This document shows, piece after piece, positions 1-48,258 of a stretch of DNA of 64,000 nucleotides (positions are counted from its first letter, which is position 1; each line of letters opens with the position of its first letter). This DNA is from Vairimorpha necatrix (Eukaryota). A model generated the notes under the pieces. The model was given only the letters and a program-made list of their open reading frames with translations. It searched no databases and had not been told where the DNA came from. The DNA is taken from assembly GCA_036630325.1 (NCBI GenBank), contig CP142730.1, positions 1,054,001 through 1,118,000 of the forward strand, in the 5' to 3' direction. Made by a program: the position numbers and the translations under genes.

Positions 1-637
1 AGTAAAAAGAGTAATACCGATAAAAAAATCGTGTATAAAATGATATAAATTGCTTTGCAAACATTTTTGCATTCAGAAGAAACAATTCATATAAACCCGT
101 ACTAATCTTATTAAATAAAAGTTTTAACTTAAAATCTTGGTTTAAAAATTTAATTAAAGTCGTTTTATTTTAGGTAAAGAATTTTAACTATCGAAAGTGG
201 TCAATATTTCTTTTCCTCTACTTTCTCCTCCTTTTTTTGCTCTTCATTTTTGGGGTTCAAAAAAAATCGTAGCGCCTCAAATGCGTGGGCTGATAGTTAT
301 CTTTAGCCATTTGCTTGCATACTTTTTAGCAAATATTTATTGTGGTATTTCTCAGTGGGACATTCTCCGTACAAAGAAAACTCTCTACTATATTCGTTAT
401 AGTTTTATAATTTTGTTTAATAAGATTTTTATTGTAATTAATACAGTCCATTTCATTTTTATAGACACCTTGTTTCATAATTATAGACACCTTGTTCCAT
501 TTTTATAGACACCTTGTTTCATTTTTATAGAACCCTCATTTTATTATTATTATAGACACCTTGTTTCATTTTTATAGAACCCTCATTTCATTATTATAGA
601 CACCTTGTTTCATTTTTATAGACACCTTGTTATAAAA

Positions 638-675
638 TGTAGGGTTTAGAACCCTTAATAAATAAATGGTTAACA
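638..675 (+). repeat. 5' LTR, 38 bp: TGTAGGGTTTAGAACCCTTAATAAATAAATGGTTAACA
   Basis: Direct repeat of 3674-3711; reverse complement occurs at 45184-45221 and 48221-48258. Confidence 0.95.
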
Positions 676-3488
676 TGGCGAACACAAGGATGAACAGGGA
701 AACAAGAGAGTCCCGTAGTCAAGAGGCTAGAACATTAGAGAAAGAGGCAATTAGGATAGATAAGAGACTAAAGTTAATATTGAAAGTTGAGAAAGTTGAG
801 TGGAAAGATGTTATGGATTTGGCATCTGCGAACTTGCAGGATTATATTTTTGAAAATTTTTGTGACGGAAGGAGCAGTTGGGAGGAAATTTATAAAGGCT
901 TACAAAAAGGAGCAGAATTTGAGAGAGAGTCAGAAGAAAGACAAGAAATGATTAAAGAGATTATGGATAAAGTGTTGAAAGAGTTTAGGGAAGAAAGAAA
1001 AGAAAATCTTAGGATGTATAGGAAAAGAAGAGAAATCAGAGAAACTACAAAATGTTTTATATGTAAGAAAGAAGGGCATTACGCTAGAGAATGTCATGAA
1101 AGTGTAGCTGGTAGGGAAAAATATAAAATTAAAAAGGAACAAGTTTTACAGAAAGAACCAATTATCAACAATGAAGGGAAAAGATGTAAAACAGTAAATA
1201 AGTTAGAAAATTTAATTAAAAAGTATCCGGAAGTTTTTAAAGAATCAGAAGAAAAGATAAAATATCTCACAGGAGAGAAGTGTCCAATAAATACTAAGCA
1301 AGGTGAAAAGGTTGTGAAAAGAGGGCAGAATGTGCCATACTACCTTAGGGTGAAATTTGAGGAGTACTTGAATAAGTTGAAAAATAGAGGGGTTATAAGA
1401 CGTTCCAAAAGTGAGTGGAGGAGTCCAATAAGAGCACTTGAAAAACCAAATGGGGACGTAAGATTGGTAAGCAATTTGATGGCGTTAAACGATTTGGTTG
1501 ACAAGGACCAGTACTCACTACCGTTAATTAAGGATATTATGAGAGCCACACAGGGGTCAAAAGTATTTACGGTTATCGACTTAAAAGAAGGGTTTTATCA
1601 TATTGAGATTGAGGAGCACCATAAGCACAAAACAGCATTTGAAGTGAATGGTCGAGTATACGAATGGAATAGTATGGTTATGGGGTTTAAGAATTCGCCT
1701 CATATAATGCAGAGAGTAATGAACAGAGTTTTAGATGAATTCAGAGGTAAAGGCGTGGAAGTATATATGGATGATATAGTTATTCATGGTAAAGACGTAA
1801 GAGTGCATGACGAGTTACTAGAGAGGGTAATTAAAAAGTTTAAAGAGTGTGGGTTGAGAATAAACCAAACAAAGATACAATACAAAAAAGATGAGGTGAT
1901 GTTGCTGGGAGTAACAATTAATGGGGAGGTCATGGGACCGAATGAGATTAAAAAGCAGGAGACATTGGAATATAGAAAACCTGAGAATGTTAGAGAGTTA
2001 AGAAGATTTTTAGGACTAACTGGTTGGTTTAGAGACTTTATTCCCAACTATGCGTATAGAACAGTAAGGCTTACTGAGGCTTTAAAGAAAGATGTTAAGT
2101 GGAATTGGACGGAGGATATGGAAAGAGCTTTTGAGGATATGAAGCAAGGCTTGAGAGATATGAAAAAGTTGAAGATTCCGGACGGAAAAAAGCTATTTAG
2201 AGTAAGAACTGATGCGTGTGATACGGGGATCGGAGCAATTCTATTACAAGAAAATAAAGAGGGTGAGTGGATTCCGATACAATGGGCATCGAAAATGTTG
2301 ACTCCTACCGAGCGAAGATATACGATAAGTGAGAAGGAGATGTTGGCGGTGTTTTTTGGAATAAAGAAGTTTGAAAGTGATTTGAGAGGAAGGAAATTTC
2401 ATTTGATGACGGATCATAAAGCATTAGCAGAGATCAGAAATAAGCCATACTTCAATAATAACAGAATAAACAGATGGGTAGAACAGATACAAGAGTTTGA
2501 CTTTACAATAGAGTATGTGAAAGGGGAGTTGATGACAGATGCAGATGCGTTAAGTAGGCAGTATGATCAGGTAGAAGTTTCGGATGAACAAAAAGAAAAG
2601 GACAACAAGAGAAAAGAAGTGATCGAAAAACAAATTTTGGGAAAAAAGCAGAAACATATTAAAGAAAAGGACGGTAAACAGTATTGGGAATTTTCCACAG
2701 GTGAGGTGAAAGAGATATTGAGCCTAGATAGTAGAGAACATGAAATAACAAGAGTACATGAGGAGTTAAACCATAGAGGTGTCAAAGGCACTTATTATAA
2801 CATTAAACAAAGATGGTATTGGCCTGGTATGAAAGATCATATTAATAAGGTAATTAAGAATTGTGAAATATGTGGGATTAACAATAGGAAAAACACAGGA
2901 GGATGTGATTTCGTAGTAACTAGAAAGAAATTGGAGAAAGTGGCGTTGGATTTAATGGACATAGGTGGAGAGAATAGGTATGTGTTACTGGGTATTGATT
3001 ACTTTACTAGAAGGTTGTGGGGTTCGAATTTGAGATGTAAAGAGAGTAGTGAAGTTATAGAGGTATTACAAAAGTGGATAAGGGAAGATGGATTTCCAGA
3101 GGAATATGTGACAGACAACGGAAAAGAGTTTGTAAGTAATAGATTTAAAGAATGGTGTAGTATTAATGATATTAAACATAGGAAAGTGGGCTTAGAAGCT
3201 CATAGGAGTAATGGTAGAATCGAGAGATGCATCAGAACTATAAGAGAGACATTGATAAAGCAAAATGATGGGAATATTTCTGAAAAGATAGAAAGAGCAA
3301 TCAAAGGATATAATAATACACTACATACAGCAATAAAATGTACGCCGATGGAAGCGTGGAGAGATCAAACTGCTGAAGTTATAATTGAAAATGATGAAAA
3401 TGGAAAATATGCTGGTCGGTTCAAGAGAAGACACAGAGAGACATTTACAGTAGGCCAAGAGGTAAGAATCGCTAGGAGAGAAAATTAA
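666..3488 (+). CDS. Gag(short)-CCHC-RT-RNaseH-integrase polyprotein, C-terminally truncated by a nonsense codon
   Basis: CFICKKEGHYAREC knuckle; RT motifs IDLKEGFYHI, MVMGFKNSP and YMDD; RNase H RTDACDTGIGA and EKEMLAV; integrase HHCC and D,D35E. A TTA>TAA change at 3486-3488 and a 1-bp deletion near 3590 relative to copy 2. Confidence 0.93.
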   Translation: MVNMANTRMNRETRESRSQEARTLEKEAIRIDKRLKLILKVEKVEWKDVMDLASANLQDYIFENFCDGRSSWEEIYKGLQKGAEFERESEERQEMIKEIMDKVLKEFREERKENLRMYRKRREIRETTKCFICKKEGHYARECHESVAGREKYKIKKEQVLQKEPIINNEGKRCKTVNKLENLIKKYPEVFKESEEKIKYLTGEKCPINTKQGEKVVKRGQNVPYYLRVKFEEYLNKLKNRGVIRRSKSEWRSPIRALEKPNGDVRLVSNLMALNDLVDKDQYSLPLIKDIMRATQGSKVFTVIDLKEGFYHIEIEEHHKHKTAFEVNGRVYEWNSMVMGFKNSPHIMQRVMNRVLDEFRGKGVEVYMDDIVIHGKDVRVHDELLERVIKKFKECGLRINQTKIQYKKDEVMLLGVTINGEVMGPNEIKKQETLEYRKPENVRELRRFLGLTGWFRDFIPNYAYRTVRLTEALKKDVKWNWTEDMERAFEDMKQGLRDMKKLKIPDGKKLFRVRTDACDTGIGAILLQENKEGEWIPIQWASKMLTPTERRYTISEKEMLAVFFGIKKFESDLRGRKFHLMTDHKALAEIRNKPYFNNNRINRWVEQIQEFDFTIEYVKGELMTDADALSRQYDQVEVSDEQKEKDNKRKEVIEKQILGKKQKHIKEKDGKQYWEFSTGEVKEILSLDSREHEITRVHEELNHRGVKGTYYNIKQRWYWPGMKDHINKVIKNCEICGINNRKNTGGCDFVVTRKKLEKVALDLMDIGGENRYVLLGIDYFTRRLWGSNLRCKESSEVIEVLQKWIREDGFPEEYVTDNGKEFVSNRFKEWCSINDIKHRKVGLEAHRSNGRIERCIRTIRETLIKQNDGNISEKIERAIKGYNNTLHTAIKCTPMEAWRDQTAEVIIENDENGKYAGRFKRRHRETFTVGQEVRIARREN

Positions 3489-3673
3489 GGTACACGTGCG
3501 AAAACAGACAAGGGAAGATTCACGGGTCGCGGAAGGATCGTAGCTATAAGTGAAAATGATTCATATATTGTGAGACTACTGGATGGTAAATTGTTAAAAA
3601 GAGGCATTATGATTTGAAAGAGATAAGGAAGAGTTGTTTAGAAGATGGAGAGACTACCCGTCTGGAGTGGGGA

Positions 3674-3711
3674 TGCAGGGTTTAGAACCCTTAATAAATA
3701 AATGGTTAACA
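3674..3711 (+). repeat. 3' LTR, 38 bp
   Basis: TGCAGGGTTTAGAACCCTTAATAAATAAATGGTTAACA, one substitution relative to the 5' LTR. Confidence 0.95.
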
Positions 3712-3856
3712 TAAAATTTATTTTTATTTTTTTCATAATTTATTTATATAGTTGAATCGTAAAGAAGAGATAACGATATAGATATAAACATCAATATTTA
3801 CATGGCAAACTATGAAAACATCTTAGAAGTTTTTAATTAAAATTTTTAATATTAAT

Positions 3857-4947
3857 TCAGAAAAAAATTCTCATTGACAAGAGCTTTCTCGATAAATTCT
3901 CTCATATGAGAAAAGTAACCATTTATGACGAATACTTCTGTGTTAAACACGTCCTCAATACAATCAATTAACAAAGGAGTGGTTGTTACATAGAGCTCTC
4001 TGTTTTACTCGGGACTTGAAACTGTTTAAAAACTCCTCGATGGGGTTTAGTTGTGGAGAATAAGGAGGGAGAAGTTTTAGACTGTATCCTTTGTTTCTAA
4101 ATGCAGCAGCTACTTCGGATTTTCTGTGTATAGGTGTGTTATCCAATATTATAAATCTGTTTTCCTCTTGCTCACAAATAGGTAAATTATTGTTATTGAA
4201 TTGACAAAATCTGTAGATTTAAAATTCCGACTTTAGTTTTATGCGCATATAATCCAATAACGCTTATAGCACACATTTAAGAAACATTAGTCCCTTTCGA
4301 ATTCGGGATTGTTACACAACACTTAGTATTTCTTAAAGGATAACCAAAAGTATTGTTAAGGTGCAGATTTAAACCAGGTTTATCGAGAAATAATAAATTA
4401 TCATTTGATATGATATTTATTACTCTCGCATATTGACACCGTAACAGCCTGTTCTGAGGACTGTTTCTACTTAGTGGAATTAAAGTCGGGGTTTAGAACT
4501 ATACCCTATTTTTTTAACAAGTCTGTAAACAGTTGACTTAGAGTAATGTCCCGTGGAATTTAAATTTTGCAATTTATCGGATAAATTATATAGACCTAGA
4601 CAAGGATTACGGGCTATTTTTGTTGCAATAATATTTGAAACCATAGAAATATCTTTTAAAGATTCGCTCTTTTTTTGTCCTGCCGTTTTAAAAGTTAAAG
4701 GTTGGTAAATTCTCCGTAAGATTCTTTTTATATAGGCGTTTAAGGCTAGACTTACTGAGATTTAAAGCAACTTCCATATCAATAAATTTCATACCAGGCC
4801 GAGTAACGAAAGAATTTTCGTTACTCGACCTGGTAATCATCTTCCTGGTTTTTCTTGGGGTAGAAGGTTGCGTTTCATCTTCTATCTTAGCAAATGATCT
4901 TTATCACGATATTCCTTAAGTTCATCTCTGACATTTAGGTTTCTCAT
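3857..4947 (-). pseudogene. Tc1/IS630 DD34E transposase pseudogene
   Basis: Fragment DNTPIH...LLPPYSPQLNPIE. Colinear with 14458-15550, with multiple stops and frameshifts. Confidence 0.88.
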
Positions 4948-5539
4948 ATTTTAAGGGTTAAAAATTTTAAAGGAAAGTAAAATAAATTTTGTGCAAAGGT
5001 GTCTATAAAAATGAAACAAGGTGTCTATAATAATGAATGGGGGTTCTATAAAAAATAAAACAAGGTGTCTATAATAATGAAATGAGGGTTCTATAAAAAT
5101 GAAACAAGGTCTATAAAAATGGAACAAGGTGTCTATAATTATGAAATAAACAGTATATTTATTGTTATTATTGTTGTTGTTCATTCTTTCTAAAATACTT
5201 GCCCTTAAACATATTATTTTTATTTATACAAAAATAATTTCTAGAAAATTCGTTATGATGTCAATAATCTCATGTGGTTTATATCACATTTATATAAAAA
5301 AAATTGACAAAAGTTTCAAAGTATGTGTAACACATATTATCATCATCATTCTTTGTACGTCAAAAAATGTCAAACGTCTCAGTTGATTTTTTATCAATGT
5401 CAAAAATCATTGTTTTTGAAAAATTCGGCGATCGGCCTAAAATTACCACATAGCGCCTAATTTTTCAATACAACAGTTTTTTTTTCTCTAAATTTTTTTT
5501 TGTATAATTTATATGAAAAAATTCTAGTTAGCCCATAAA

Positions 5540-6589
5540 ATGTTTTTAATATTAGATTTAGTATATTGCGCTAATTTAAATCTAGATGCGCACTTAGAAT
5601 GTTCAATTTACAAAAATAGTAATGATACTTCTAATACATCTACTCAAGAAAAGTTTGATAATGAATCACATGCAGAAATTCTTAAACAAAATTCAAATAT
5701 CGATGGTTTAAATTATGAATCTGCTAATGATTTATGTGGTATCACTAATTTCATATTTGAAAATATTATTAATTTTAATATAAACAATGACTATCAAGAT
5801 TTAAATTCTTTAAAGGAAGAAATGGCTAGTACGTATTTAGGTAAAGACTATAACGATTCTTTGGAAATTGACGATATAAATATTATAACAATTGAGTCTC
5901 AAGATGAAGATACAAAATCTTCTCAAACAACGGATAAAGTAGGGGACATACCGCAAAACACCAAAAGTTTAGCCCCCGACAGCTCTTGTTATTTTTTTAC
6001 AGTAAAGGAAAGATTATCTCAGTGTGAGGAAAAAATCAAAACAATTCTTAATAAAGGAAACTTGGAAAAAATTATATTAGAGAAAAAAAATCAAAATGGG
6101 ATAAACGAAAAAATGATCGATAAAGAGATTATGAAATCCTATAATAAAAAATTAACAAAAACCAGATTGCATAATCGTAAACTAAACGTTAAAAATTTAC
6201 GAGCTTATGAAAAAGTATTAAGTGAACCATGGATACCTACAGATATAAAAAACATAATAACTGATTTTATAAGAATTTTCAACTTATTTATAGAAATTTT
6301 TTATATTAATGCAAGACTACCCAAACTGAAAGTAGGATCAGTTGAATCCAGAATCAATATCCAAAATTTCAACATCAAAATTTTTTCCCAATATAAAAAC
6401 ATACCAATTTTAGAAAGTTTTCACTTACTAGAAGATAAATTAGAAACATATGAATACAAATATGTTGAAATTAAATATGTTTTAGAACAGCTTATAACTA
6501 GAATTAAAACGAAATTAACAACCTTGATCCTACACTATAACGAAACTATAAACATTCTTAGAGGGTTGAATCAATTATACTACAATTAA
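5540..6589 (+). CDS. Unknown 349-aa protein, possibly secreted (paralog A)
   Basis: Long ORF with GCCC upstream of the ATG. Short hydrophobic N-terminus MFLILDLVYC, acidic N-half, basic and probably helical C-half. Paralog at 17387. Confidence 0.85.
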   Translation: MFLILDLVYCANLNLDAHLECSIYKNSNDTSNTSTQEKFDNESHAEILKQNSNIDGLNYESANDLCGITNFIFENIINFNINNDYQDLNSLKEEMASTYLGKDYNDSLEIDDINIITIESQDEDTKSSQTTDKVGDIPQNTKSLAPDSSCYFFTVKERLSQCEEKIKTILNKGNLEKIILEKKNQNGINEKMIDKEIMKSYNKKLTKTRLHNRKLNVKNLRAYEKVLSEPWIPTDIKNIITDFIRIFNLFIEIFYINARLPKLKVGSVESRINIQNFNIKIFSQYKNIPILESFHLLEDKLETYEYKYVEIKYVLEQLITRIKTKLTTLILHYNETINILRGLNQLYYN

Positions 6590-8914
6590 TAAACTTCTTA
6601 AATGCGTTTTCTATATTATGTTGTAGTTAAAAATGGCACTTTTTGTAGACTATTTTATTTATTTCTGCAATAAGTTTTACGAGATAATTCAATGAGTAAA
6701 AAATTTAACTTTCGATTTCATCGCATTGAGATAATGGAATGCCGTATAAACATGATAAATGAAATTAGATGTATTTAATTGTTCAGTGTAATACTTGATA
6801 AATCTATACATAGAAAAGTACTCTATTTGAAACTTAATAATTTGCATCTTTGATCTGCATGAAATCAATCGCGGATTATTTTGGATAAGTACAGAAAAAA
6901 GCACCAAATATTACAATATAACAGCTCATGATCACCCGACAACTAAAGAAACTTAATTTTAAATATGGCAATTGCCTCATAAACATGCTAGAACCAAGAA
7001 TACCCTTTAAAGTGCTTGGCTTCGCCAACTTATAACATAAAGATCTTGAAACTATATTTGTAATTTCTTCGATTTTTATGTAAAAAACAATAAAATTCAT
7101 GATTATTAATCGTTAAAAAAATTTTAGAACATAAACAGATCATAAATACACACTTAAAAGGCCGCTACAGTATTTACAAATAAATTTGCAAACGAACTAT
7201 TAAAAACTTTGTTGTATAATATCAATTCTTGTTTATATATATATATATACAAGAAAATGTTTTTTAATAGAAAAATATCTTAATTCTTCATACTAAAACT
7301 TTCCCGCGCATAGGTATTCAATCTTTTCCTCTTCTAAAAATAAAATTACTTATTTTTAATTATACAATTCAATCATATGTTTTTTATTAACTTGACATAT
7401 AATGTAGGAATGAAAGGATCGTTGGATATAATCCTTACAATATCGTCCAAAGCTAAAAAGTTTAGATGTCTATTATATTTATGTATAGTATCTTCTACCA
7501 ATACAATATTGCATAGTAATGTTTTTTATGTGTTTTGTTTGAAAAAAACTGTTTTTACTTGTTAATTATTTTCAAATATATATTTTTAGTAAGTCTAAAT
7601 TTTCTTAATTTAAAGCCTTTGGGTGCAAAGTTTATTGCCGTATTAATTTTTTTTATTTTGACAATTGAGCTCATTATCATCTGTCTTAACAATCTTATTT
7701 TTTCTTGTTTGTTTTCGCCTTCTCTAATCTTTCAAGTTTATCCTTTAAACAATGCTTTATAGAAGTTACATGGAAGGCAATTTGTTTTTCTTATTCTGTT
7801 TCTTATATAGTCACTAAATTTTTTTACTACATTAGAAATCAATATATTCAGATTGAATTCTTTGTAATATTTTCAAAAACTTAAAAAAATCGTACTTGAT
7901 TTTTTTTTCTAAAACGTGTTTGCTTTGGAGCGTAGAAAAAGTAATTTATTGCAGTAAACATACATGGGCTTACCTTTGGGCCTATATTTTCAAAGGGCGT
8001 CTTCCCCGCCTTTTTAGGCTTCAATATGTGTTTTTAGCGTAAACCTTGCCGAAGTGTATCCTTAAGCATAATACATTCTTTTTTATTCTCGTACTTTGAT
8101 TTATTTAATATTTAAAAGTCTTCATATGAACACTCACTGTCCATCAACTAATCTGTTATGAATCAATTTATTTTTTTAGATAAAAAGCTTTAAACGCAGT
8201 GTAATCAGTAGAAATCAAGTTTTTTATAAATAACCATTATTTAAAGCATTTAATCGACTATACAGCTAAAGTTTCTTCCTATGTGATAGTTTACTAATTT
8301 CGCATCTCTAGGTTGCCCGGATACAAATGATATCGATAGTTCTATTCAATTACAAATTTAGTCTAATATTGCATCTAGTCCCAATGATACGTGTAAACAG
8401 TAAAAAAAATTAGATTATAGAATGCTTACAATATGTATAGTATTAAACTCAATGTTTTTTTGTATTATTAATTGGAATTCTTCCCATATATATTGGCATT
8501 TTCCTTTATTAACAGTATTGGAGGACTGCAGATTTCTGCACAGTACAAAAAAACTTCTATGCTAGATGATAATTCCTAGTTTTTTTTAACATCCTTCGAG
8601 TTTTTAGGTCATTTGTAGTAACTAATTCCTTTTGTTCTATATTCTATTGGTTGACTTCTATAATGTAAATTTTTTTGCCATAAATACAAATTAATGCTTC
8701 TAATTGTTATTTTATTTTTTTTTAATAATTGAAATAGATATATTAAACGGTATCTAAAGCTTTTTGATGCTCTCTAATAGTTTTGTAGTGTACTAAAATA
8801 TCGATGACATATAAAAAGCGTGTCTATACACCTATAAATATTAACTTTATTTTTACTTTTAAACGTGTCCTAATATTTTAAACCCGTTTATTAAGTACAT
8901 ATAAATAAATTCCA

Positions 8915-10300
8915 TTAGGGTATACTTATTGTAATTTATATTTTAGTTAAACAAGGATAGGTTCCGCGTTAGGGTCTCCTGCTTGTAGGTGGCTTCTCGT
9001 TTCTATAGTCCTTTCCACATCGGCTTCGTCTCCTCTCCTTCGGTAGTCCAAAGAAATGCTTTCTAGCGTCTTCTATAGCGTGATCATCTGGATATACGCT
9101 TCTACCTTATTAGGATTCTCAAGTCTTGTGGTATAAAATTTGTGAAACTTAGTCACTATACCGTCCTAAGTGATTACGTAGGAAATTATTTCTGTTTAAA
9201 AATCATATATTAGGCCTAATTCGTTCGCGAGGATTCTATACTTTCTTAAATTATCGTTTTCTACTTGCTGTAACACTCTTGTGATGTGACACCTATTTCG
9301 ATTATTCTGATCAATTTGTTCTTTTTATCTACTACGACAATGTCTGGTTTATTATATTTGATCTTTATGTTTTTTTACTGTCGTGTCTATTCTTATTTAC
9401 ATATTTGTTGGCAACTATCTGTTGTACTGAGTGGTTTCTTAATTTCTTCTTATCTGCACTTTATATTTTTCACACAGTAATAGGTAGATACATTTAAAAT
9501 ATCAAAATGCAGTCTCGTATAATCGTGTCCTGGCATTTTTCGCACATTGTCGCTAGATGATCCACGGCCTTTGCTGATTTATTACAATAAAAGCAATTTC
9601 CAATCGATTTATTAAATATATTTCGGTCTTGTAGGGCACATAACTTAATTTCTGTCCTGGTATTCGTGCTACCTACCTCAAGCCACAGTGATGAATTGTT
9701 AATGTCGACTATTTCATATTCTAATGCCTTAAACAACTTTTTATGTTTGTTTTATTATTTATGTTGTTGTATAGGGTATTCTATTGAGCATCCGTCAGTG
9801 GTTTTTGTTCCACATCTATTAGCTTATATTTTTCCTGGACATATGCTTTAATTAGAAAAAAGTGAGTTTTCTTTTTTTTTCTGGCTTAATATAATAGCTC
9901 GTCTTCTGGGGCAGATATTGACCGATTGTTTGAGTCCGTTTTTACTTTAAGTAGCATGCTTTCACTTTTACACACTGCACTAGTAAGTCCTTCCCGACCG
10001 CATCGCAAAGAAAGTATAGCCTTTCTTTTTATGACGGCTGTGAATGACCTATCTGTACGTTCAATGGCATTATAATGAGTCTATCTCAGGTTCTATATCT
10101 AGTACACCAACGTAAAAATTTATAATTTAAATAGCAAATTCGAAAATTGACCTTAAGGTGTTTTTGGCGTTAAGTTTTGTACTACAAATCTAATAAGTAC
10201 ATAATATGTTTTTATTTTATATTTAAGGGCTGTATGTTCTCTGTATGATTGTTTAAGTTTGCCCCCAAAAGCTTCTTATAGATCTATTAGCCAAGTACTG
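8915..10300 (-). pseudogene. Degenerate non-LTR retrotransposon 3' part, restriction-like endonuclease type (R4/Dong-like)
   Basis: LCALQD, CFYC..DHLATMC knuckle, DYTRLH (RHD-like), KPDIVVVDKK..EIGVT..KY (PD-(D/E)xK RLE). Upstream RLY..GKDL resembles RLYxxRxxGGRGL. Upper boundary is approximate. Confidence 0.8.
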
Positions 10301-10627
10301 GTATATAAACATAATTGTATTAATTTATCCGTCAGTCTATAACTTTCTAAATCTACAAGATTATTGAGTTTAATTAAAAACTAGTAAATCTAAAGCTACT
10401 TTCAAACAGCAGGGCTCGCTTTTCTTCCCACGTCAATCAGACTCTATAATACATTTTTTAAGTAACAATCTTCGTAGTTACACTTCCTCTTTCCTTTTCC
10501 AACCTTGTGAAATTATATATAGTCTTTCGACAACATTTCTCTCACATTTAAGTGTTAAATATAAGATAAAATCTTTTATTCCTTTGTTTTTCAAGTACAA
10601 ATTATAAATTTCGATACCTGGATCTGA

Positions 10628-11051
10628 AACGATTCCTTCAGAGGGTATTTACTTTATTTTTCTAACCCCTAAAATATAAGGCAAAACAAGAAAAGCATGC
10701 ACTAGCACTCAAATTACTACTATTATTTAATATTAAAAATACCAAATTTAAATACATAAGTCATAAAATTCAATTTTTAAATCATGTTACAAATATAATG
10801 CGCTTTTTAAATTTCAATGAAGTTTGTTTATAAAAATTAGACACACGTTTTACATTTTAAATTAAATAAGTCGAAATAATTCTAAATATATAGTCTAATT
10901 TATATCTAATAATTTAAAATTGAATTTTATACACAAATGTATTTTTATTTGGTATTTTTAAGATTTAAAGATATCAGTAATGTTTTTCCTTCCTTTTTGC
11001 ACTACATTTTGGGGTTAAAAAAATAAAGTGAACCATCTCCGGGGAGCCGTT
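10628..11051. repeat. Imperfect long inverted repeat or foldback (~170-bp arms); second copy at 22460-22882
   Basis: CTTTATTTTTCTAACCCCTAAAAT pairs with ATTTTGGGGTTAAAAAAATAAAG; TTAAAAATACCAAAT with ATTTGGTATTTTTAA; ATAAAATTCAATTTT with AAAATTGAATTTTAT. Confidence 0.7.
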
Positions 11052-11360
11052 AGAATATCTCGGCCAAAAAATAGGATTTATTATTGAATTTTTTTTACAA
11101 ATAATACAAGAATATAATATTTAAACTTCTACAAAAATTCCATACAAATAATTTATTGATTGTGTCGGTATATATTGAACATATTAACTTAGCATTTTTC
11201 TAATATCATTTCTTTTATTTGTAAGTATACAAAATTAAAAACGAATGTGAAATATACGCCAAAAAAGTTAGAAATAACAGGACTGAAGTCATATAGATTT
11301 AATTGTACAGAAATATGAGATAATAAGAAGGAATCTATTCTATAATAAATTAGAAGAATG

Positions 11361-14273: not shown

Positions 14274-15842
14274 CAGTCCATTTCATTTTTATAGACACCT
14301 TGTTATAAAATTTATAGACTCCTCATTTTATTAAAGACACCTTGTTATAAAATTTATAGACACCTTATTTCATTTGTATAGAACCCTCATTCATTATTAT
14401 AGAACCCTTGTTCTAAAATTTATTTTACTTTCCATTAAAATTTTTAACCCTTAAAATATGAGAAACCTAAATGTCAGAGAAGAACTTGAGGAATATCGTA
14501 CAGAAGAATCATTTGTCGAGATAGAAGTTGAAATGCAGTCTTCTACCCCAAGAAAACCCAGGAAGATGATTACCAGGTCGATAATCGAAAGTTTTCTTTC
14601 GTTACTCGACACTGGTATGAAACTTATTGATATGGAAGTTGCTTTAAATCTCAGCAAGTCTAGCCTCACACGCCTATATAAAAGATATCTTACAGGAGAT
14701 TTTACCAACCTTTCAACTTTTAAAACGGCAGGACAAAAAAAGAGTGAATTTTTAAAAGATATTTCTATGGTTTCAATTATTATTGCAACGGAAATAGCCC
14801 CGAATCCTCGTCTAGGTCTTTATAATTTATCCGATAAATTGCAAAATGTAAATTCCACGGGACATTACTAAAAGTCAACTGTTTGCAGACTTGTTAAAAA
14901 ATTGGGGTATAGTTCTAAAACCCCGACCTTGATTCCACTAGGTAGTAACAGTCCTCAGAACAAGCTGTTAAGGTCTCAATATGCGAGAGTAATAAATATC
15001 ATATTAAATGATAATTTAATATTTCTCGATGAAACTGGTTTAAATCTGCACCTTAATACTTTTGGTTATTCTTTAAGAAATACTAAGTGTTGTGTAACGG
15101 TCCCGAATTCTGAAGGGACTAATGTTTCGTTAATGTGTGCTATAAGCGTTAATGGATTATATGAGCATAAAACTAAAGTCGGAAGTTTTAAATCTACAGA
15201 TTGTCGAATTCATTAACAACTATTTACCTATTTGTGAGCAAGGGGAAAACAGAATTTTAATATTGGATAACGCATCTATACACAGAACATCCGAAGTAGC
15301 TGCTGCATTTAGAAACAAAGGATACAGTCTAAAACTTCTCCCTCCATATTCTCCACAACTAAACTCCATCGAGAAGTTTTTTAACAGTTTCAAGTCCAGA
15401 GTAAAACAGAGACCTAGACCAACAACCACTCCTTTGTTAATTGATTGTATTGAGGGCGTGTTGAACACAGAAGTATTCGTCATGGATGGTTACTTTTCTC
15501 ATATGAGAGAATTTATCGAGAAAGCTCTTGTCAATACGGATTTTTTCTGAATTAATGAAATTAAAAAATTTAATTTAAAATTTCTAGGATGTTTTCATTG
15601 TTTGGCATGTAAATATTGATGTTTATATCTTTATCATTGTCTCTTCTTCGCGATTCAACTATATAAATAAATTATGAAAAAAATAAAAATAAATTATATA
15701 ACAAGGTGTCTATAAATTTTATAACAAGGTGTCTATAAATTTTATAACAAGGTGTCTATAAAAATAAAATGAGTTGTCTATAAAAATGAAACAAGGTTTC
15801 TATAATTATAAAACAAGGTGTCTATAAAAATGAAATGGACTG
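14274..15842 (+). mobile_element. Tc1/IS630-family DNA transposon copy 2 (full length)
   Basis: 31-bp perfect TIRs CAGTCCATTTCATTTTTATAGACACCTTGTT, TA on both sides, subterminal repeat arrays. Confidence 0.95.
14458..15550 (+). pseudogene. DD34E transposase with one in-frame stop (14869-14871) and a frameshift near 15200
   Basis: HTH-like N-terminus; FLDETG; LDNASIH with 34 residues between D and E (YSPQLNSIE); AACCCTT upstream of the ATG. Confidence 0.9.
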
Positions 15843-17386
15843 TATATCCTATTCTTCTCTTTAGTTGTATTGTTTTTTGTAACATATTTATCATTTAAAA
15901 ATTCAAATAAAAACTTTAATTAATAGTCCTCTTTTTACAACAGCAATTGCAAAATGTAAAAAATAAACACAAAGTTCGATGATTTACTCAAAAATTTTTA
16001 TATTAATACAATAATAAAAGTTTGATTGTAAAGTGAATATTTATATATTTAGTACCACGTACCCCTATACTGCTAGTGATGACGCTCTACAATGTTGTAG
16101 AATAATTATTTTAATTTAATTGTCTCTATTTTCTTTTACACCTCTTGTGTTTATCTCTCATTATCTCTTCTTTTGTATCTTTTTTATGAAAAAAATTTCT
16201 AAATTTTCTAAAAAATTGACACATCTTAGAAAAACAGTCCATAGTATTTGTAAGAATCATATGTATCATTGTTAAAAATTGTACGCAATAAAAAATGTAA
16301 AATCATAATCTATAAATTTATTAAAATATGTTGTAATAAAAAAACTTCGGAGTTCGAGTAGAAAAAGATCATAAAAAGTGTTGCTTTCGTTTTCTACATA
16401 ACAATGAAGCACTAAAATTTATAAGTTAGGCAGACAAAAATATTCGACTATTTCTACATTGAAAAAAAGATATTATGAAATAGCTAAAAATTAAAATTTA
16501 CAGTATATTTTTAATGTCGCTATAATTATTAAGTATTTTTTATAATTTTAATTTTGTAAAATATTCAAAATGTTTACCTATTATATACGAAATTTGCTTT
16601 AAAGATCTTTAAATTTTACAATAAATGTTAAAATGCAATACGGGTCTTAGATAGAACACATATTTCACACTCTAAAATCAATGCTCTAAGAAAGGAAAAT
16701 TTTACATATATTATGTCTAATTGTTGCAACATAAAATTAAAATTTTGTATCTAACAATATAGTTATTATATCTTTTAAATTATAGGTTCAAATGGTTTTG
16801 TCTTGATCTTGCTCCTCCTTTTTGCCTTAATTTTATATGTTAATGAGAAAACCAAAACTCTTTTGGAAGTGTTTGCTACTTTCTACCAAAAACTATAAGT
16901 ATTTGATCGCAAAAAATCAACCATAATTGGTTTCTATGCAAATTGTTTTAACGTGCCAGGAAATGTACATTTTCTTTTTTATGAACATCTTTCGGGGTAT
17001 ATCTAAATATTACTGTTTCGAATTTGTCTCTACACAATAATCTTGAAAATTTATAAACATACCAGTTAAAAGTTAAGTGTTAATTACTCACGATACACTT
17101 CTTGTAGTAATTTGCTTGCATACTTTTTAGAAAATATTTATATAAAAAAATTGACAAAAGTTTCAAAATATGTGTAAACACATAATATCATCATAATTCT
17201 TTGTACGTCGAAAAATGTCAAACGTCTCAGTTGATTTTGTATCAATGTCAAAAATCATTGTTTTTGAAAAATTTGGCGATCGGCCTAGATTTACCGCATA
17301 GCGCCTAATTTTTCAATACAACAGTTTTTTTTTCTCTAAATTTTTTTTGTATAATTTATATAAAAAAATTCTAGTTAGCCCATAAA

Positions 17387-18439
17387 ATGTTTTTAATATT
17401 AGATTTAGTATATTGTGCTAATTTAAATCTAGATGCGCACTTAGAATGTTCAATTTACAAAAATAGTAATGATACTTTTAATACATCTACTCAAGAAAAG
17501 TTTGAACATGAATCACATGCAGAAATTTTTAAACAAAATTCAAATATTGATGGTTTTAATTATGAATCTGCTAATGATTTATATGGTATTACTAATTTTA
17601 TAGTTGAAAGCTTTACTAATTTTGATATAAACAATGACTATCAAGATTTAAATTCTTTAAAGGAAGAAATGGGGAGTACGTATTTAGGTAAAGACTATAA
17701 CGATTTCATGGAAATTGACGATATAAATATTATAACAATTGAGTCTCAAGATGAATATACAAAATCTTCTCAAACAACGGATCAAGTAGGGGACATCCCG
17801 CAAAACACCAAAAGTTCAACCCCCGAAAGCTCTTGTTATTTTTTTACAGTAAAGGAAAGATTATTTCAGTGTGAGGAAAAAATCAAAACAATTCTTAATA
17901 AAGGAAACTTGGAAAAAATTATATTAGAGAAAAAAAATCAAAATGGGATAAACGAAAAAATGATCGATAAAGAGATTATGAAATCCTATAATAAAAAATT
18001 AACAAAAACCAGATTGCATAATCGTAAACTAAACGTTAAAAATTTACGAGCTTATGAAAAAGTATTAAGTGAACCATGGATACCTACAGATATAAAGAAC
18101 ATAATAACTGATTTTATAAGAATTTTCAACTTATTTATAGAAATTTTTAATATTAAGGCAAGAATGCCCAAACTGAATGTAGGATCAGTTGAATCCAGAA
18201 TCAATATCCAAAATTTCAACATCAAAATTTTTTCCCAATATAAAAACATACCAATTTTAGAAACTCTAAACTTGTTGGTAAGCAAATTAGAAACATATAA
18301 ATACGAAAATATATTAATTAAACATAATATACGAAGGCTTATAACTAGAATTAAAACGAAATTAACAACCTTGATCCTACGCTATAACAAAACTATAAAC
18401 ATTCTTGAAGAGTTGAATCAATTATACTACAACCAATAA
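17387..18439 (+). CDS. Unknown 350-aa protein, possibly secreted (paralog B)
   Basis: Paralog of 5540-6589; about 43 amino acid differences by manual count. Confidence 0.85.
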   Translation: MFLILDLVYCANLNLDAHLECSIYKNSNDTFNTSTQEKFEHESHAEIFKQNSNIDGFNYESANDLYGITNFIVESFTNFDINNDYQDLNSLKEEMGSTYLGKDYNDFMEIDDINIITIESQDEYTKSSQTTDQVGDIPQNTKSSTPESSCYFFTVKERLFQCEEKIKTILNKGNLEKIILEKKNQNGINEKMIDKEIMKSYNKKLTKTRLHNRKLNVKNLRAYEKVLSEPWIPTDIKNIITDFIRIFNLFIEIFNIKARMPKLNVGSVESRINIQNFNIKIFSQYKNIPILETLNLLVSKLETYKYENILIKHNIRRLITRIKTKLTTLILRYNKTINILEELNQLYYNQ

Positions 18440-20759: not shown

Positions 20760-22130
20760 ATTAGGGTATACTTATTGTAATTTATATTTTAGTTAAACAA
20801 GGATAGGTTCCGCGTTAGGGTCTCCTGCTTGTAGGTTGCTTTATGTTTCTATAGTCCTTTCCACATCGGCTTCGTCTCCACTCCTTCGGTAGTCCAGAGA
20901 AATGCTTTCTAGCGTCTTCTTTTGCAATTTGTCTGGGTATCCGCTTTTACCTTATTAGGATTCTCAAGTCTTGTGGTATAAAATTTGTGAAACTTAGTCA
21001 CTATACCGTCCTAAGTGATTACGTAGGAAATTATTTCTGTTTAAAAATCATATATTAGTCCTAATTCATCCTCGAGGATTCTATACTTTCTCAAAATAAC
21101 GTTTTCTACTTGCTGTAACACTCTTGTGATGTGACATCTATTTCGATTATTCTTTTTATCTACTACGACAATGTCTGGTTTATTATATTTGATCTTTATG
21201 TTTTTTTACTATCGTGTCTATTCTTATTTACATCTTTGTTGGCAACTATCTGTTGTACTGAGTGGTTTCTTAATTTCTTCTTATCTGCACTTTATATTTT
21301 TCACACAGTAATAGGTAGATACATTTAAAATATCAAAATGCAGTCTCGTATAATCGTGTCCTGGCATTTTTCGCACATTGTCGCTAGATGATCCACGGCC
21401 TTTGCTGATTTATTACAATAAAAGCAATTTCCAATCGATTTATTAAATATATTTCGGTCTTGTAGGGCACATAACTTAATTTCTGTCCTGGTATTCGTGC
21501 TACCTACCTCAAGCCACAGTGATGAATTGTTAATGTCGACTATTTCATATTCTAATGCCTTAAACAACTTTTTATGTTTGTTTTATTATTTATGTTGTTG
21601 TATAGGGTATTCTATTGAGCATCCGTCAGTGGTTTTTGTTCCACATCTATTAGCTTATATTTTTCCTGGACATATGCTTTAATTAGAAAAAAGTGAGTTT
21701 TCTTTTTTTTTCTGGCTTAATATAATAGCTCGTCTTCTGGGGCAGATATTGACCGATTGTTTGAGTCCGTTTTTACTTTAAGTAGCATGCTTTCACTTTT
21801 ACACACTGCACTAGTAAGTCCTTCCCGACCGCATCGCAAAGAAAGTATAGCCTTTCTTTTCATGACGGCTGTGAATGACCTATCTGTACGTTCAATGGCA
21901 TTATAATGAGTCTATCTCAGGTTCTATATCTAGTACACCAACGTAAAAATTTATAATTTAAATAGCAAATTCGAAAATTGACCTTAAGGTGTTTTTGGCG
22001 TTAAGTTTTGTACTACAAATCTAATAAGTACATAATATGTTTTTATTTTATATTTAAGGGCTGTATGTTCTCTGTATGATTGTTTAAGTTTGCCCCCAAA
22101 AGCTTCTTATAGATCTATTAGCCAAGTACT
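20760..22130 (-). pseudogene. Degenerate RLE-type non-LTR retrotransposon (duplicate of 8915-10300)
   Basis: Same motifs; the 80-aa ORF at 21325-21567 is identical to that at 9494-9736. Confidence 0.8.
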
Positions 22131-44758: not shown

Positions 44759-45183
44759 TAAGGGGAAGAAAGAAAAAATTATCTAAATAAAAATTAATAA
44801 ATTTTGAAGTAGGAATTTAATATTTTTATAATGTTTATTAAAACTTCCAGAATCATATGATATTTGTTATTATTTGATTTTTTACTAATTCTTGTGCGTT
44901 TTATATTGAAGCCGCTAGGAATCAATTAAAATTACATCTTGTCGAATCTTTATATAACAATTAGAATTTATTAACTTGATTTAGAAATAATCAATTGTAT
45001 ACTTGGCTAATATTAGTAAACACTACTATAAACAAGTAAAATAATTATTGATGATCTATCAACATAAATAAAATGTTCAAATTTATGACATAAGGAAGTC
45101 AATTTTAGTGATAAATTGATTTGTTTTTAACCCATAAAAAAGAACATGTTTAAATTGAACAAAATTTTATTTTTTTTATATAT

Positions 45184-48100
45184 TGTTAACCATTTATTTA
45201 TTAAGGGTTCTAAACCCTACATCCCCCCTCCAGACGGGTAGTCTCTCCATCTTCTAAACAACTCTTCCTTATCTCTTTCAAATCATAATGCCTCTTTTTA
45301 ACAATTTTACCATCCAGTAGTCTCACAATATATGAATCATTTTCACTTATAGCTACGATCCTTCCGCGACCCGTGAATCTTCCCTTGTCTGTTTTCGCAC
45401 GTGTACCTAAATTTTCTCTCCTAGCGATTCTTACCTCTTGGCCTACTGTAAATGTCTCTCTGTGTCTTCTCTTGAACCGACCAGCATATTTTCCATTTTC
45501 ATCATTTTCAATTATAACTTCAGCAGTTTGATCTCTCCACGCTTCCATCGGCGTACATTTTATTGCTGTATGTAGTGTATTATTATATCCTTTGATTGCT
45601 CTTTCTATCTTTCCAGAAATATTCCCATCATTTTGCTTTATCAATGTCTCTCTTATAGTTCTGATGCATCTCTCGATTCTACCATTACTCCTATGAGCTT
45701 CTAAGCCCACTTTCCTATGTTTAATATCATTAATACTACACCATTCTTTAAATCTATTACTTACAAACTCTTTTCCGTTGTCTGTCACATATTCCTCTGG
45801 AAATCCATCTTCCCTTATCCACTTTTGTAATACCTCTATAACTTCACTACTCTCTTTACATCTCAAATTCGAACCCCACAACCTTCTAGTAAAGTAATCA
45901 ATACCCAGTAACACATACCTATTCTCTCCACCTATGTCCATTAAATCCAACGCCACTTTCTCCAATTTCTTTCTAGTTACTACGAAATCACATCCTCCTG
46001 TGTTTTTCCTATTGTTAATCCCACATATTTCACAATTCTTAATTACCTTATTAATATGATCTTTCATACCAGGCCAATACCATCTTTGTTTAATGTTATA
46101 ATAAGTGCCTTTGACACCTCTATGGTTTAACTCCTCATGTACTCTTGTTATTTCATGTTCTCTACTATCTAGGCTCAATATCTCTTTCACCTCACCTGTG
46201 GAAAATTCCCAATACTGTTTACCGTCCTTTTCTTTAATATGTTTCTGCTTTTTTCCCAATATTTGTTTTTCGATCACTTCTTTTCTCTTGTTGTCCTTTT
46301 CTTTTTGTTCATCCGAAACTTCTACCTGATCATACTGCCTACTTAACGCATCTGCATCTGTCATCAACTCCCCTTTCACATACTCTATTGTAAAGTCAAA
46401 CTCTTGTATCTGTTCTACCCATCTGTTTATTCTGTTATTATTGAAGTATGGCTTATTTCTGATCTCTGCTAATGCTTTATGATCCGTCATCAAATGAAAT
46501 TTCCTTCCTCTCAAATCACTTTCAAACTTCTTTATTCCAAAAAACACCGCCAACATCTCCTTCTCACTTATCGTATATCTTCGCTCGGTAGGAGTCAACA
46601 TTTTCGATGCCCATTGTATCGGAATCCACTCACCCTCTTTATTTTCTTGTAATAGAATTGCTCCGATCCCCGTATCACACGCATCAGTTCTTACTCTAAA
46701 TAGCTTTTTTCCGTCCGGAATCTTCAACTTTTTCATATCTCTCAAGCCTTGCTTCATATCCTCAAAAGCTCTTTCCATATCCTCCGTCCAATTCCACTTA
46801 ACATCTTTCTTTAAAGCCTCAGTAAGCCTTACTGTTCTATACGCATAGTTGGGAATAAAGTCTCTAAACCAACCAGTTAGTTCTAAAAATCTTCTTAACT
46901 CTCTAACATTCTCAGGTTTTCCATATTCCAATGTCTCCTGCTTTTTAATCTCATTCGGTCCCATGACCTCCCCATTAATTGTTACTCCCAGCAACATCAC
47001 CTCATCTTTTTTGTATTGTATCTTTGTTTGGTTTATTCTCAACCCACACTCTTTAAACTTTTTAATTACCCTCTCTAGTAACTCGTCATGCACTCTTACG
47101 TCTTTACCATGAATAACTATATCATCCATATATACTTCCCCGCCTTTACCTCTGAATTCATCTAAAACTCTGTTCATTACTCTCTGCATTATATGAGGCG
47201 AATTCTTAAACCCCATAACCATACTATTCCATTCGTATACTCGACCATTCACTTCAAATGCTGTTTTGTGCTTATGGTGCTCCTCAATCTCAATATGATA
47301 AAACCCTTCTTTTAAGTCGATAACCGTAAATACTTTTGACCCCTGTGTGGCTCTCATAATATCCTTAATTAACGGTAGTGAGTACGGGTCCTTGTCAACC
47401 AAATCGTTTAACGCCATCAAATTGCTTACCAATCTTACGTCCCCATTTGGGTTTTCAAGTGCTCTTATTGGACTCCTCCACTCACTTTTGGAACGTCTTA
47501 TAACCCCTCTATTTTCCAACTTATTCAAGTACTCCTCAAATTTCACCCTAAGGTAGTATGGCACATTCTGCCCTCTTTTCACAACCTTTTCACCTTGCTT
47601 AGTATTTATTGGACACTTCTCTCCTGTGAGATATTTTATCTTTTCTTCTGATTCTTTAAAAACTTCCGGATACTTTTCAATTAAATTTTCTAACTTATTT
47701 ACTGTTTTACATCTTTTCCCTTCATTGTTGATAATTGGTTCTTTCTGTAAAACTTGTTCCTTTTTAATTTTATATTTTTCCCTACCAGCTACACTTTCAT
47801 GACATTCTCTAGCGTAATGCCCTTCTTTCTTACATATAAAACATTTTGTAGTTTCTCTGATTTTTCTTCTTTTCCTATACATCCTAAGATTTTCTTTTCT
47901 TTCTTCCCTAAACTCTTTCAACACTTTATCCATAATCTCTTTAATCATTTCTTGTCTTTCTTCTGACTCTCTCTCAAATTCTGCTCCTTTTTGTAAGCCT
48001 TTATAAATTTCCTCCCAACTGCTCCTTCCGTCACAAAAATTTTCAAAAATATAATCCTGCAAGTTCGCAGATGCCAAATCCATAACATCTTTCCACTCAA

Positions 48101-48258
48101 CTTTCTCAACTTTCAATATTAACTTTAGTCTCTTATCTATCCTAATTGACTCTTTCTCTAATGTTCTAGCCTCTTGACTACGGGACTCTCTTGTTTCCCT
48201 GTTCATCCTTGTGTTCGCCATGTTAACCATTTATTTATTAAGGGTTCTAAACCCTACA
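45184..48258 (-). mobile_element. Miniature Ty3/gypsy LTR retrotransposon copy 2 (identical 38-bp LTRs, TSD TATAT)
   Basis: LTRs at 45184-45221 and 48221-48258. TATAT at 45179-45183 and 48259-48263. PPT GGAGGGGGGA. Confidence 0.96.
45210..48230 (-). CDS. Uninterrupted 1006-aa Gag-CCHC-RT-RNaseH-IN polyprotein with no recognisable protease
   Basis: ATG lies inside the 5' LTR and TAG inside the 3' LTR. All RT, RNase H and integrase catalytic motifs are present. Confidence 0.95.
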   Translation of the reverse strand: MVNMANTRMNRETRESRSQEARTLEKESIRIDKRLKLILKVEKVEWKDVMDLASANLQDYIFENFCDGRSSWEEIYKGLQKGAEFERESEERQEMIKEIMDKVLKEFREERKENLRMYRKRRKIRETTKCFICKKEGHYARECHESVAGREKYKIKKEQVLQKEPIINNEGKRCKTVNKLENLIEKYPEVFKESEEKIKYLTGEKCPINTKQGEKVVKRGQNVPYYLRVKFEEYLNKLENRGVIRRSKSEWRSPIRALENPNGDVRLVSNLMALNDLVDKDPYSLPLIKDIMRATQGSKVFTVIDLKEGFYHIEIEEHHKHKTAFEVNGRVYEWNSMVMGFKNSPHIMQRVMNRVLDEFRGKGGEVYMDDIVIHGKDVRVHDELLERVIKKFKECGLRINQTKIQYKKDEVMLLGVTINGEVMGPNEIKKQETLEYGKPENVRELRRFLELTGWFRDFIPNYAYRTVRLTEALKKDVKWNWTEDMERAFEDMKQGLRDMKKLKIPDGKKLFRVRTDACDTGIGAILLQENKEGEWIPIQWASKMLTPTERRYTISEKEMLAVFFGIKKFESDLRGRKFHLMTDHKALAEIRNKPYFNNNRINRWVEQIQEFDFTIEYVKGELMTDADALSRQYDQVEVSDEQKEKDNKRKEVIEKQILGKKQKHIKEKDGKQYWEFSTGEVKEILSLDSREHEITRVHEELNHRGVKGTYYNIKQRWYWPGMKDHINKVIKNCEICGINNRKNTGGCDFVVTRKKLEKVALDLMDIGGENRYVLLGIDYFTRRLWGSNLRCKESSEVIEVLQKWIREDGFPEEYVTDNGKEFVSNRFKEWCSINDIKHRKVGLEAHRSNGRIERCIRTIRETLIKQNDGNISGKIERAIKGYNNTLHTAIKCTPMEAWRDQTAEVIIENDENGKYAGRFKRRHRETFTVGQEVRIARRENLGTRAKTDKGRFTGRGRIVAISENDSYIVRLLDGKIVKKRHYDLKEIRKSCLEDGETTRLEGGCRV

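Follow-up and report, generated by a model that had tools for sequence, protein, structure and literature searches.

The 64,000-nt stretch of Vairimorpha necatrix DNA analyzed here (GCA_036630325.1, contig CP142730.1, positions 1,054,001 to 1,118,000; hereafter the window, numbered from its first letter) harbors two copies of a retrotransposon whose ends are formed by a direct repeat of only 38 bp. We consider it probable that these 38 bp are the complete long terminal repeat (LTR) of a compact (3,075 bp), recently active, protease-less microsporidian Ty3/gypsy element with a single open reading frame (ORF), which would follow ordinary LTR replication from an internal start of the host type. 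The parts of the repeat are directly seen: the TGT and ACA ends, a purine-CCC-pyrimidine start motif, one to two poly(A) hexamers, and a stretch of about 20 nt from the CCC to the end. At positions 638 to 675, where a sequence-only reading had picked out the string, the letters proved to be exactly as described, motif by motif, including the 16 nt (650-665) that separate the TAG stop from the ATG start. The claim that this string is an LTR with integrase-type ends also held, the TG and CA termini being accompanied by 5-bp target duplications, by a TGG like that of a primer-binding site (PBS) and by a G-rich purine tract. Together, the terminal repeats, the TG and CA ends, the duplications, the TGG and the purine tract are the standard marks of an LTR retrotransposon. 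The length of 38 bp falls below the usual range (about 100 bp to several kilobases), and the default minimum of LTRharvest (minlenltr) is 100 bp (Table 1 of PMC2253517). That the unique 3′ (U3), repeated (R), and unique 5′ (U5) segments must all be tiny, as had been argued, follows arithmetically from such a length.

A search of the window with the 38-mer, allowing at most three mismatches, returned four sites, against a mean of 0.00 in 100 shuffles. These sites bound the two copies of the element, which lie at 638-3711 on the forward strand (copy 1, 3,074 bp) and at 45184-48258 on the reverse strand (copy 2, 3,075 bp) and are 99.5% identical over 3,075 nt by blastn. In an alignment that took in 60-nt flanks, the copies differed by 14 substitutions and one single-base indel, and the likeness between them ended at the repeat edges. 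The target duplications fit with no other edges, and the repeat must therefore run from TGT to ACA. Searches of the window with copy 2 (blastn and tblastn) found, besides the two full copies, no further fragments, solo LTRs, or tandem copies; the tandem arrangement that the earlier reading had offered as a way of coping with so short a repeat is thus not borne out in the window, where the two copies stand alone and have separate target duplications. At the junction of the LTR and the PBS-like stretch, the last A of the repeat and the first two letters of the following TGG (A675 + T676 G677) form a second ATG, in frame with the first. Two other classes of element were excluded, namely, a DIRS/Ngaro element with a tyrosine recombinase (by the DDE integrase, rve, the plain direct repeats, and the 5-bp duplications) and a non-autonomous TRIM/SMART element (by the intact 1006-aa ORF of copy 2).

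The ORF of copy 2 starts and stops inside the LTRs (48230..45210), as the sequence-only reading had anticipated: its ATG sits 10 nt before the end of the 5′ LTR, and its TAG lies between the inverted-repeat arms of the 3′ LTR. That this TAG is the ORF's own stop is right for the intact copy 2 and wrong for copy 1, where the ORF is broken earlier (at 3486-3488 and near 3587) and the reading frame remaining beyond the lesions continues to the TAG at 3683-3685. Comparison with Pfam located in the 1006-aa product a CCHC zinc knuckle (residues 129-144), a reverse transcriptase (RT; RVT_1, 261-418), an RNase H (481-611; RT_RNaseH, 508-611), an Integrase_H2C2 domain (690-741), and the integrase core rve (766-839). 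The order zinc knuckle, RT, RNase H, and integrase with a DDE core is that of Ty3/gypsy elements. The knuckle scored 21.6 bits on a fragment, above the cut-off of 20.8, and 17.8 bits when the whole ORF was compared. Pfam gave no capsid family for the 1006-aa ORF, whose first 128 residues have no assigned domain, and no aspartic protease was matched at E <=0.1 with the whole ORF or at E <=1 with residues 100-270; in the alignment, only about 40 residues separate the knuckle from the start of RT homology. The 14 between-copy substitutions in the ORF comprise 12 that change the protein, one of them being the nonsense codon, and 2 that are silent, a pattern that would fit independent decay after insertion.

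Table. Location of the features of both element copies in the window and of the LTRs, ORFs, and conserved boxes in related loci (each locus in its own numbering)
Feature	Position	Strand	Details
Copy 1, 5′ target duplication	633-637	+	TAAAA; same 5 nt at 3712-3716
Copy 1, 5′ LTR	638-675	+	38 bp
Copy 1, 5′ LTR, TGT end	638-640	+
Copy 1, 5′ LTR, left inverted-repeat arm	641-646	+	AGGGTT
Copy 1, 5′ LTR, TAG between arms	647-649	+
Copy 1, 5′ LTR, right inverted-repeat arm	650-655	+	AACCCT
Copy 1, 5′ LTR, CCC motif	652-654	+
Copy 1, 5′ LTR, AATAAA hexamers	657-662 and 661-666	+	two, overlapping
Copy 1, 5′ LTR, ATG	666-668	+
Copy 1, 5′ LTR, ACA end	673-675	+
Copy 1, ORF	666-3488	+	broken; 940 aa; nonsense codon 3486-3488; 1-base deletion near 3587
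Copy 1, PBS-like stretch	676-693	+	starts TGG; 18-nt extent nominal, certain only for TGG; inside ORF
Copy 1, conserved box	3640-3663	+	upstream of the purine tract
Copy 1, polypurine tract	3664-3673	+	GGAGTGGGGA; one T interrupts; abuts 3′ LTR
Copy 1, 3′ LTR	3674-3711	+	38 bp; one mismatch to 5′ LTR, at the third base
Copy 1, 3′ target duplication	3712-3716	+	TAAAA
Copy 2, 5′ target duplication	48259-48263	-	ATATA
Copy 2, 5′ LTR	48221-48258	-	38 bp; identical to the string at 638-675
Copy 2, ORF	45210-48230	-	intact; 1006 aa; ATG in 5′ LTR; TAG stop 45210-45212
Copy 2, conserved box	45232-45255	-	upstream of the purine tract
Copy 2, polypurine tract	45222-45231	-	GGAGGGGGGA; abuts 3′ LTR
Copy 2, 3′ LTR	45184-45221	-	38 bp; identical to its own 5′ LTR
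Copy 2, 3′ target duplication	45179-45183	-	ATATA
L001, LTR	2724-2761		66% aa identity; 3′ end only, with purine tract; 38 bp; 29/38 ungapped positions as in the window
L001, LTR contents			TAG stop at LTR positions 12-14; ATTAAA + AATAAA; ATG 10 nt from the end
L001, conserved box	~2697-2712
L002, LTRs	416-482, 3879-3945		~38% identity; identical 67-bp repeats
L002, ORF	467-3796		start within the 5′ repeat; stop 83 nt short of the 3′ repeat
L002, conserved box	~3850-3862
L003, LTRs	229-286, 3535-3592		~36% identity; 58-bp repeat pair
L003, ORF	286-3552		first letter is the final A of the LTR; stop codon at LTR positions 16-18
L003, conserved box	~3505-3516
L007, LTR			best tblastn segment 52% aa identity; 5′ end only; ~47 bp; left edge tentative

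The start motif of the LTR is the one that precedes host genes. Among the ORFs of 120 aa or more that do not belong to the element, of which the window has 16, 12 have a CCC no more than 15 nt ahead of the ATG; the corresponding shares are 4.3% for 15-nt windows as a whole (binomial p = 7e-14) and 4.5% for ATGs in general. This upholds the claim that the ACCCTT of the LTR is the CCC-type motif of the host, and it matches the motif in two published accounts (PMC2685015, PMC2803860). The first of these places a CCC motif within 15 bp of the starts of Nosema ceranae and Encephalitozoon cuniculi genes (PMC2685015). For E. cuniculi, rapid amplification of cDNA ends gave 5′ untranslated regions of <7 nt and an AAATTT-like signal upstream of the CCC, together with AAUAAA or AUUAAA near the stop and, for two genes, cleavage 16-17 nt after it (PMC2803860). 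AACCCTTAA, which is the exact core of the LTR, is also found ahead of a host-like ORF at 14458 and of the inverted copy of that ORF near 4959. Homologues of an SNF2-type helicase, MCM5, CDC20, and TFIIE-beta are among the remaining ORFs of the window; the MCM5 shares 69% identity with the Nosema granulosis protein and 62-65% with those of Encephalitozoon and N. bombycis.

DNA of sister elements was available as eight small contigs (L001-L008) from a bacterial and archaeal genome collection, where they sit in metagenome bins. These contigs, of 1.3-6 kb, are filed in bins labelled Clostridium, Turicibacter, Erysipelotrichales, and Thermoguttaceae, and are most likely mis-binned eukaryotic (microsporidian) DNA. 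LTRs could be compared for the window element and four of the loci (L001, L002, L003, and L007); the 3′ end of L004 and the whole of L005 were set aside as further LTR sources because they are decayed, and L008 was rejected as a member because it belongs to a different family, with a protease. All five LTRs start with TGT, end with ACA (TAACA in the window, L001, and L003), and contain a poly(A) hexamer. An ATG at the ACA/TGG junction was credited to all five, the TGG itself being readable in the four loci with a 5′ junction (window, L002, L003, and L007), where it stands directly 3′ of the LTR. The sequence-only reading had looked to sister elements for the hairpin, the AATAAA, and the ATG: the poly(A) hexamer and the ATG are kept, and the hairpin recurs partly in L001 and not in L002, L003, or L007.

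From the last C of the CCC to the LTR end there are 21 nt in the window, 20 in L001, 19 in L003, and 21 in L002, despite total lengths of 38-67 bp, and the part to the left of the CCC varies from 14 to 43 nt. The extra left-hand part contains a AAAAAATTTT run in L003 and TATAAATA in L002. In L003 and L002, the hexamers immediately precede the CCC; in the window and L001, they immediately follow it. Since the right part is constant at 19-21 nt while the left part varies, we read the right part as a putative R-U5 unit and the left part as a shrinking U3, for which this constancy would be the best internal evidence. Purine tracts like that of the window were seen in L001 and L002, whereas L003 has GCGGCGGCA, which is not purely purine.

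At 12-20 nt upstream of the purine tract, the window, L001, L002, and L003 share a further conserved box, GAGAC followed by CCCG. It is 100% identical between the window and L001 over 19 nt, against only 66% identity of the proteins, and encodes the tail ..ETTRL... The box may act in cis, as a signal in packaging or in the priming of the plus strand. A CCC...GGG stem linking it to the purine tract was tried and rejected, as it folds no better than shuffles.

At the protein level, 143 relatives were retained at E <=0.001 among 7,999 scored candidates. The close named ones come from Nosema granulosis, Vairimorpha necatrix, and Enteropsectra breve, and others from entries labelled bacterial metagenome bins. 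Contigs of only 3,035-3,283 bp carry 14 relatives of 996-1039 aa and leave 25-163 nt outside the ORF, compared with 54 nt in the window element; on this ground, extreme compaction is a trait of the whole family, the LTR size itself not being deducible from such contigs alone. The termini of the best 46 of the 143 relatives carry traces of the same layout. The N-terminal motif [Asn/His/Tyr/Asp]-Met-[Ala/Gly] occurs in 20 of these 46, within the first 8 residues (in one case at residue 30), and 6 more start with Met-[Ala/Gly]; most of the other 20 start further inside, five differ (P0019, P0030, P0033, P0034, and P0045), and near the N-termini of these 20 no Met-Ala/Gly preceded by any other residue was seen. 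Because Asn, His, Tyr, and Asp are the four residues whose codons can end in -AC, this motif points to a conserved ..ACA/TGG(C/G) junction within the ORF. At the other end, eight relatives (P0001, P0007, P0011, P0014, P0015, P0016, P0021, and P0025) have Gly-rich C-terminal tails in different frames (..GGC, ..GDVV.., ..GMLG..), which would fit a run of G followed by TGT.

With regard to the protease, the compact clade formed by the window element and its close relatives has a CCHC knuckle and no detectable protease. L002 and L003 show weak, sub-threshold aspartic-protease matches at residues 214-306 and no CCHC knuckle, and distant relatives in the alignment of the window ORF with 29 relatives have motifs of the D-T-G-S/A type.

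From these features, the following route of expression and replication can be proposed. RNA polymerase II would start a few nucleotides downstream of the CCC, as in host genes, and the 5′ end of the RNA would then hold at most 21 nt of LTR (R + U5), or 11-21 nt if the first ATG is transcribed, followed by the PBS inside the ORF. The first AATAAA would fall in U3 and be transcribed intact only from the 3′ LTR, so that premature cleavage at the RNA 5′ end would be avoided. In the 3′ LTR, the AATAAA would direct cleavage 10-20 nt downstream, which would place the RNA 3′ end at the LTR edge or slightly past it. Any few bases of flank included in this way should be harmless, since the strong-stop DNA pairs with the repeat and is extended leftward from there. 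Minus-strand strong-stop DNA would measure about 11-21 nt, at or below the shortest retroviral R, and would transfer to the corresponding part of the 3′ LTR and copy U3, the remaining replication being canonical, with plus-strand synthesis presumably starting at the purine tract beside the 3′ LTR. Translation would start at the LTR ATG or at the in-frame ATG of the obligatory ACA/TGG junction, and the ORF would run on to the first stop inside the 3′ LTR. The sequence-only reading had concluded that so short a repeat implies an unusual transfer mechanism. None is required: retroviral R regions go down to 16 nt, in mouse mammary tumor virus (MMTV), and partial strong-stop DNA can transfer early (PMC6088434).

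Several points weigh against this proposal. The transcription start site, the cleavage site, and the sizes of R and U5 are all values that we infer from the arrangement of motifs. The first ATG of the LTR lies 14 nt from the start of the CCC. This still satisfies the 15-nt definition but is farther out than in the 12 CCC-bearing genes of the window (-3 to -10) and than the peak reported for host genes (-10 to -3). The 58- and 67-bp LTRs have a TATA-like or AAATTT-like element, and none fits into the left-hand 17 nt of the window LTR; the LTR of L007 is without a CCC. ARAGORN found no tRNA genes in the window or in the eight loci, and hence no partner was matched to the PBS. No target duplication was found in L002 or L003, whose metagenome flanks may be chimeric. 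The lack of a detectable protease makes the processing of the polyprotein doubtful. Finally, each copy has substitutions of its own at sites where the relatives vary little or not at all, and either copy may be inactive.

A more far-reaching view, which we put forward only tentatively and judge to be possible rather than probable, is that the element represents a minimal natural LTR retroelement. At 3.07 kb and without a protease, it would rely on the host CCC motif as its only promoter, have an R of about 10-15 nt or no separate U5 (because cleavage falls at or beyond the LTR edge), make the shortest strong-stop DNA of any retroelement, and achieve transfer through a zinc-knuckle chaperone fused to RT and integrase in an unprocessed polyprotein. 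The LTR, at 38, 58, and 67 bp in the elements compared, would have shrunk as the host compacted its regulatory signals.

Transcription that starts in upstream host DNA, or at the first LTR base, and ends downstream would make the whole 38 nt a repeat, the RT switching template before or at its left edge. The sequence-only reading had named such read-through transcripts as an alternative to unusual transfer, and frequent transcriptional overrun and multigene transcripts have been described in microsporidia (PMC2803860). Partial strong-stop DNA can, moreover, transfer before R is fully copied (PMC6088434), and no recognisable TATA-like or AAATTT-like element lies to the left of the CCC; the hairpin would then lie inside R. 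We nonetheless regard this route as unlikely. Strong-stop DNA ending in the host flank would carry non-homologous host bases at its 3′ end and should find no match at the 3′ LTR, and the CCC, whose distance from the LTR end stays at 19-21 nt across four elements, points to an internal start. The nearest upstream ORF on the strand of copy 2 ends about 1.3 kb away, and the absence of tandem copies in the window likewise speaks against it.

An internal start, as preferred here, also bears on the inverted repeat AGGGTT-TAG-AACCCT, for which a function in minus-strand transfer, 3′-end formation, or stop recognition might be supposed. The stem is present as the sequence-only reading described it (6 bp, with a 3-nt loop), but its minimum free energy of -5.9 kcal/mol is no more stable than expected by chance (z = -0.24; 78 of 200 dinucleotide shuffles were as stable), and a perfect stem of at least 6 bp with a loop of 3-8 nt arose in 1,120 of 20,000 mononucleotide shuffles (5.6%). 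L001 keeps a 5-bp version at the same place, again around a TAG stop; the outermost pair is lost, and one A-to-G change preserves pairing as a G.U pair. Its stability (-4.6 kcal/mol, z = -0.09) was reached by 83 of 200 shuffles, two sequences are too few for a real covariation test, and the LTRs of L002, L003, and L007 have no equivalent stem. With a start site downstream of the CCC, the hairpin would form part of U3, and the 5′ end of the RNA would not contain it. A functional nucleic-acid structure is, in our estimation, quite improbable; most likely, the inverted repeat is either incidental or the CCC motif repeated in the opposite orientation, and not a hairpin that the element needs.

A related suggestion, to which we assign a similarly small chance, is that the inverted repeat is a protein-binding palindrome of two opposed ACCCT-type motifs, making up a compact and possibly bidirectional promoter. 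GGG-type motifs replace CCC before some microsporidian genes, and palindromic signals have been proposed for divergent genes (PMC2803860); a GGG motif was also noted before a Pol gene of Anncaliia algerae (PMC4072689). L001, in addition, keeps both GGG and CCC while the bases between them change. The GGG arm, however, is absent in L002, L003, and L007, no binding factor is known, and neither flank has an ATG after the outward-facing motif. Read on the minus strand, the left arm is itself an ACCCT-type motif facing outward, 4 nt from the LTR edge. Such an outward-facing ACCCT motif resembles the telomere-repeat-like promoter boxes of other eukaryotes.

That the 38 bp are what is left of a once longer LTR, or that the copies are dead relics moved by other means and of no replicative meaning, is highly improbable: copy 1 is broken, copy 2 is substituted at conserved positions, and only two copies were seen, but two independent insertions that are 99.5% alike share the 38-bp ends with exact TG and CA edges, have their own 5-bp duplications and lose their likeness at the repeat edges, the 66%-identical L001 has a 38-bp LTR of the same layout, and other relatives have 58- and 67-bp pairs.

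The surroundings of the copies contain several other repeats. Arrays of a 22-bp tandem repeat (unit TTTCATTTTTATAGACACCTTG, with some units TATAGAACCCTCA) occupy 451-631, 4996-5149 (-), 14288-14423, and 15689-15835 (-); one of them ends within 6 nt of the target duplication of copy 1, and the arrays adjoin the duplicated host-like ORFs that have AACCCTTAA at their starts. Just downstream of copy 1, there is a direct segmental duplication of about 6 kb (5329-11305 and 17177-23137; 91-100% identity; spacing of about 11.84 kb), with inverted arms beside it at 3994-4699 and 14712-15415. The duplication holds paralogous ORFs of 349 and 350 aa (5540-6589 and 17387-18439) with no Pfam match, and stretches of higher G+C content at 8-10 kb and 20-22 kb with no long ORF. 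Elsewhere in the window, two neighbouring 310-aa paralogues (57496-58428 and 60321-61253), whose DNA is about 77% alike over 300 nt, have no Pfam family and are each preceded by CCC.

Single-polyprotein Ty3/gypsy elements are known in microsporidia, and Parisot et al. 2014 recognize three microsporidia-specific groups (PMC4202319). The window element resembles these groups and the Nbr elements of Nosema bombycis in phylum, in the order RT, RNase H, and integrase, and in having one gag-pol ORF; it clusters with the microsporidian gypsy groups by its best named hits, which are microsporidian, and differs in being without a detectable protease. We found no text with the LTR lengths or anatomy of microsporidian elements, and no account of an ORF beginning and ending inside LTRs; for both, a prior description in Xu et al. 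2006, in the supplements of Parisot 2014, or in Repbase is possible. Single-ORF Ty3/gypsy organization in a fungus-related host is shared with Tf1-type elements, which the window element does not follow in self-priming: the longest complementarity between the LTR and the following 80 nt is 6 nt, with G.U pairs counted, and Tf1-like self-priming is therefore not indicated.

Short LTRs occur in grasses, where FRetro129/SMART has repeats of 85 bp and FRetro64 has LTRs of 76/90 bp (PMC3281118). These elements are like the one described here in their TGT and ACA ends, 5-bp target duplication, and very short LTRs. They differ in having LTRs of roughly double the length; in addition, FRetro129 has no coding capacity, and FRetro64 belongs to the copia type, with a length of 5.2 kb (PMC3281118). 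Compact gene boundaries of microsporidia offer another parallel, in that the LTR accommodates a stop, CCC, AATAAA, and ATG within 22 nt, as a host intergenic spacer does; unlike such a boundary, the LTR module is mobile, is duplicated at both ends of the element, and has its CCC 14 rather than 3-10 nt from the ATG. Among retroviruses, MMTV has long U3 and U5 regions and an LTR of over a kilobase, compared with 38 bp for the entire LTR here. What the two would have in common is the size of the transferred repeat, since MMTV, with an R of 16 nt, shows that first-strand transfer can work with a repeat of about 16 nt (PMC6088434), within the range proposed above (at most 21 nt of R + U5). A 38-bp LTR on an ORF-bearing element is thus a marked extreme among known LTR elements and not a separate kind.

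These observations have consequences for the way such elements are found. LTRs of this size are far below the LTRharvest default (PMC2253517), and structure-based surveys of microsporidian genomes that apply a default of this kind would miss or misclassify the elements that bear them; contigs carrying such elements are already mislabelled in bacterial metagenome bins. If the 38-bp LTR works as proposed, it would mark a natural lower bound, made up of integrase ends, a start motif, a poly(A) signal, and a repeat of about 20 nt, and would provide a very small system for the study of strand transfer and LTR promoter function. The LTR also shows a mobile element that has taken over the miniature gene-boundary signals of the parasite itself.

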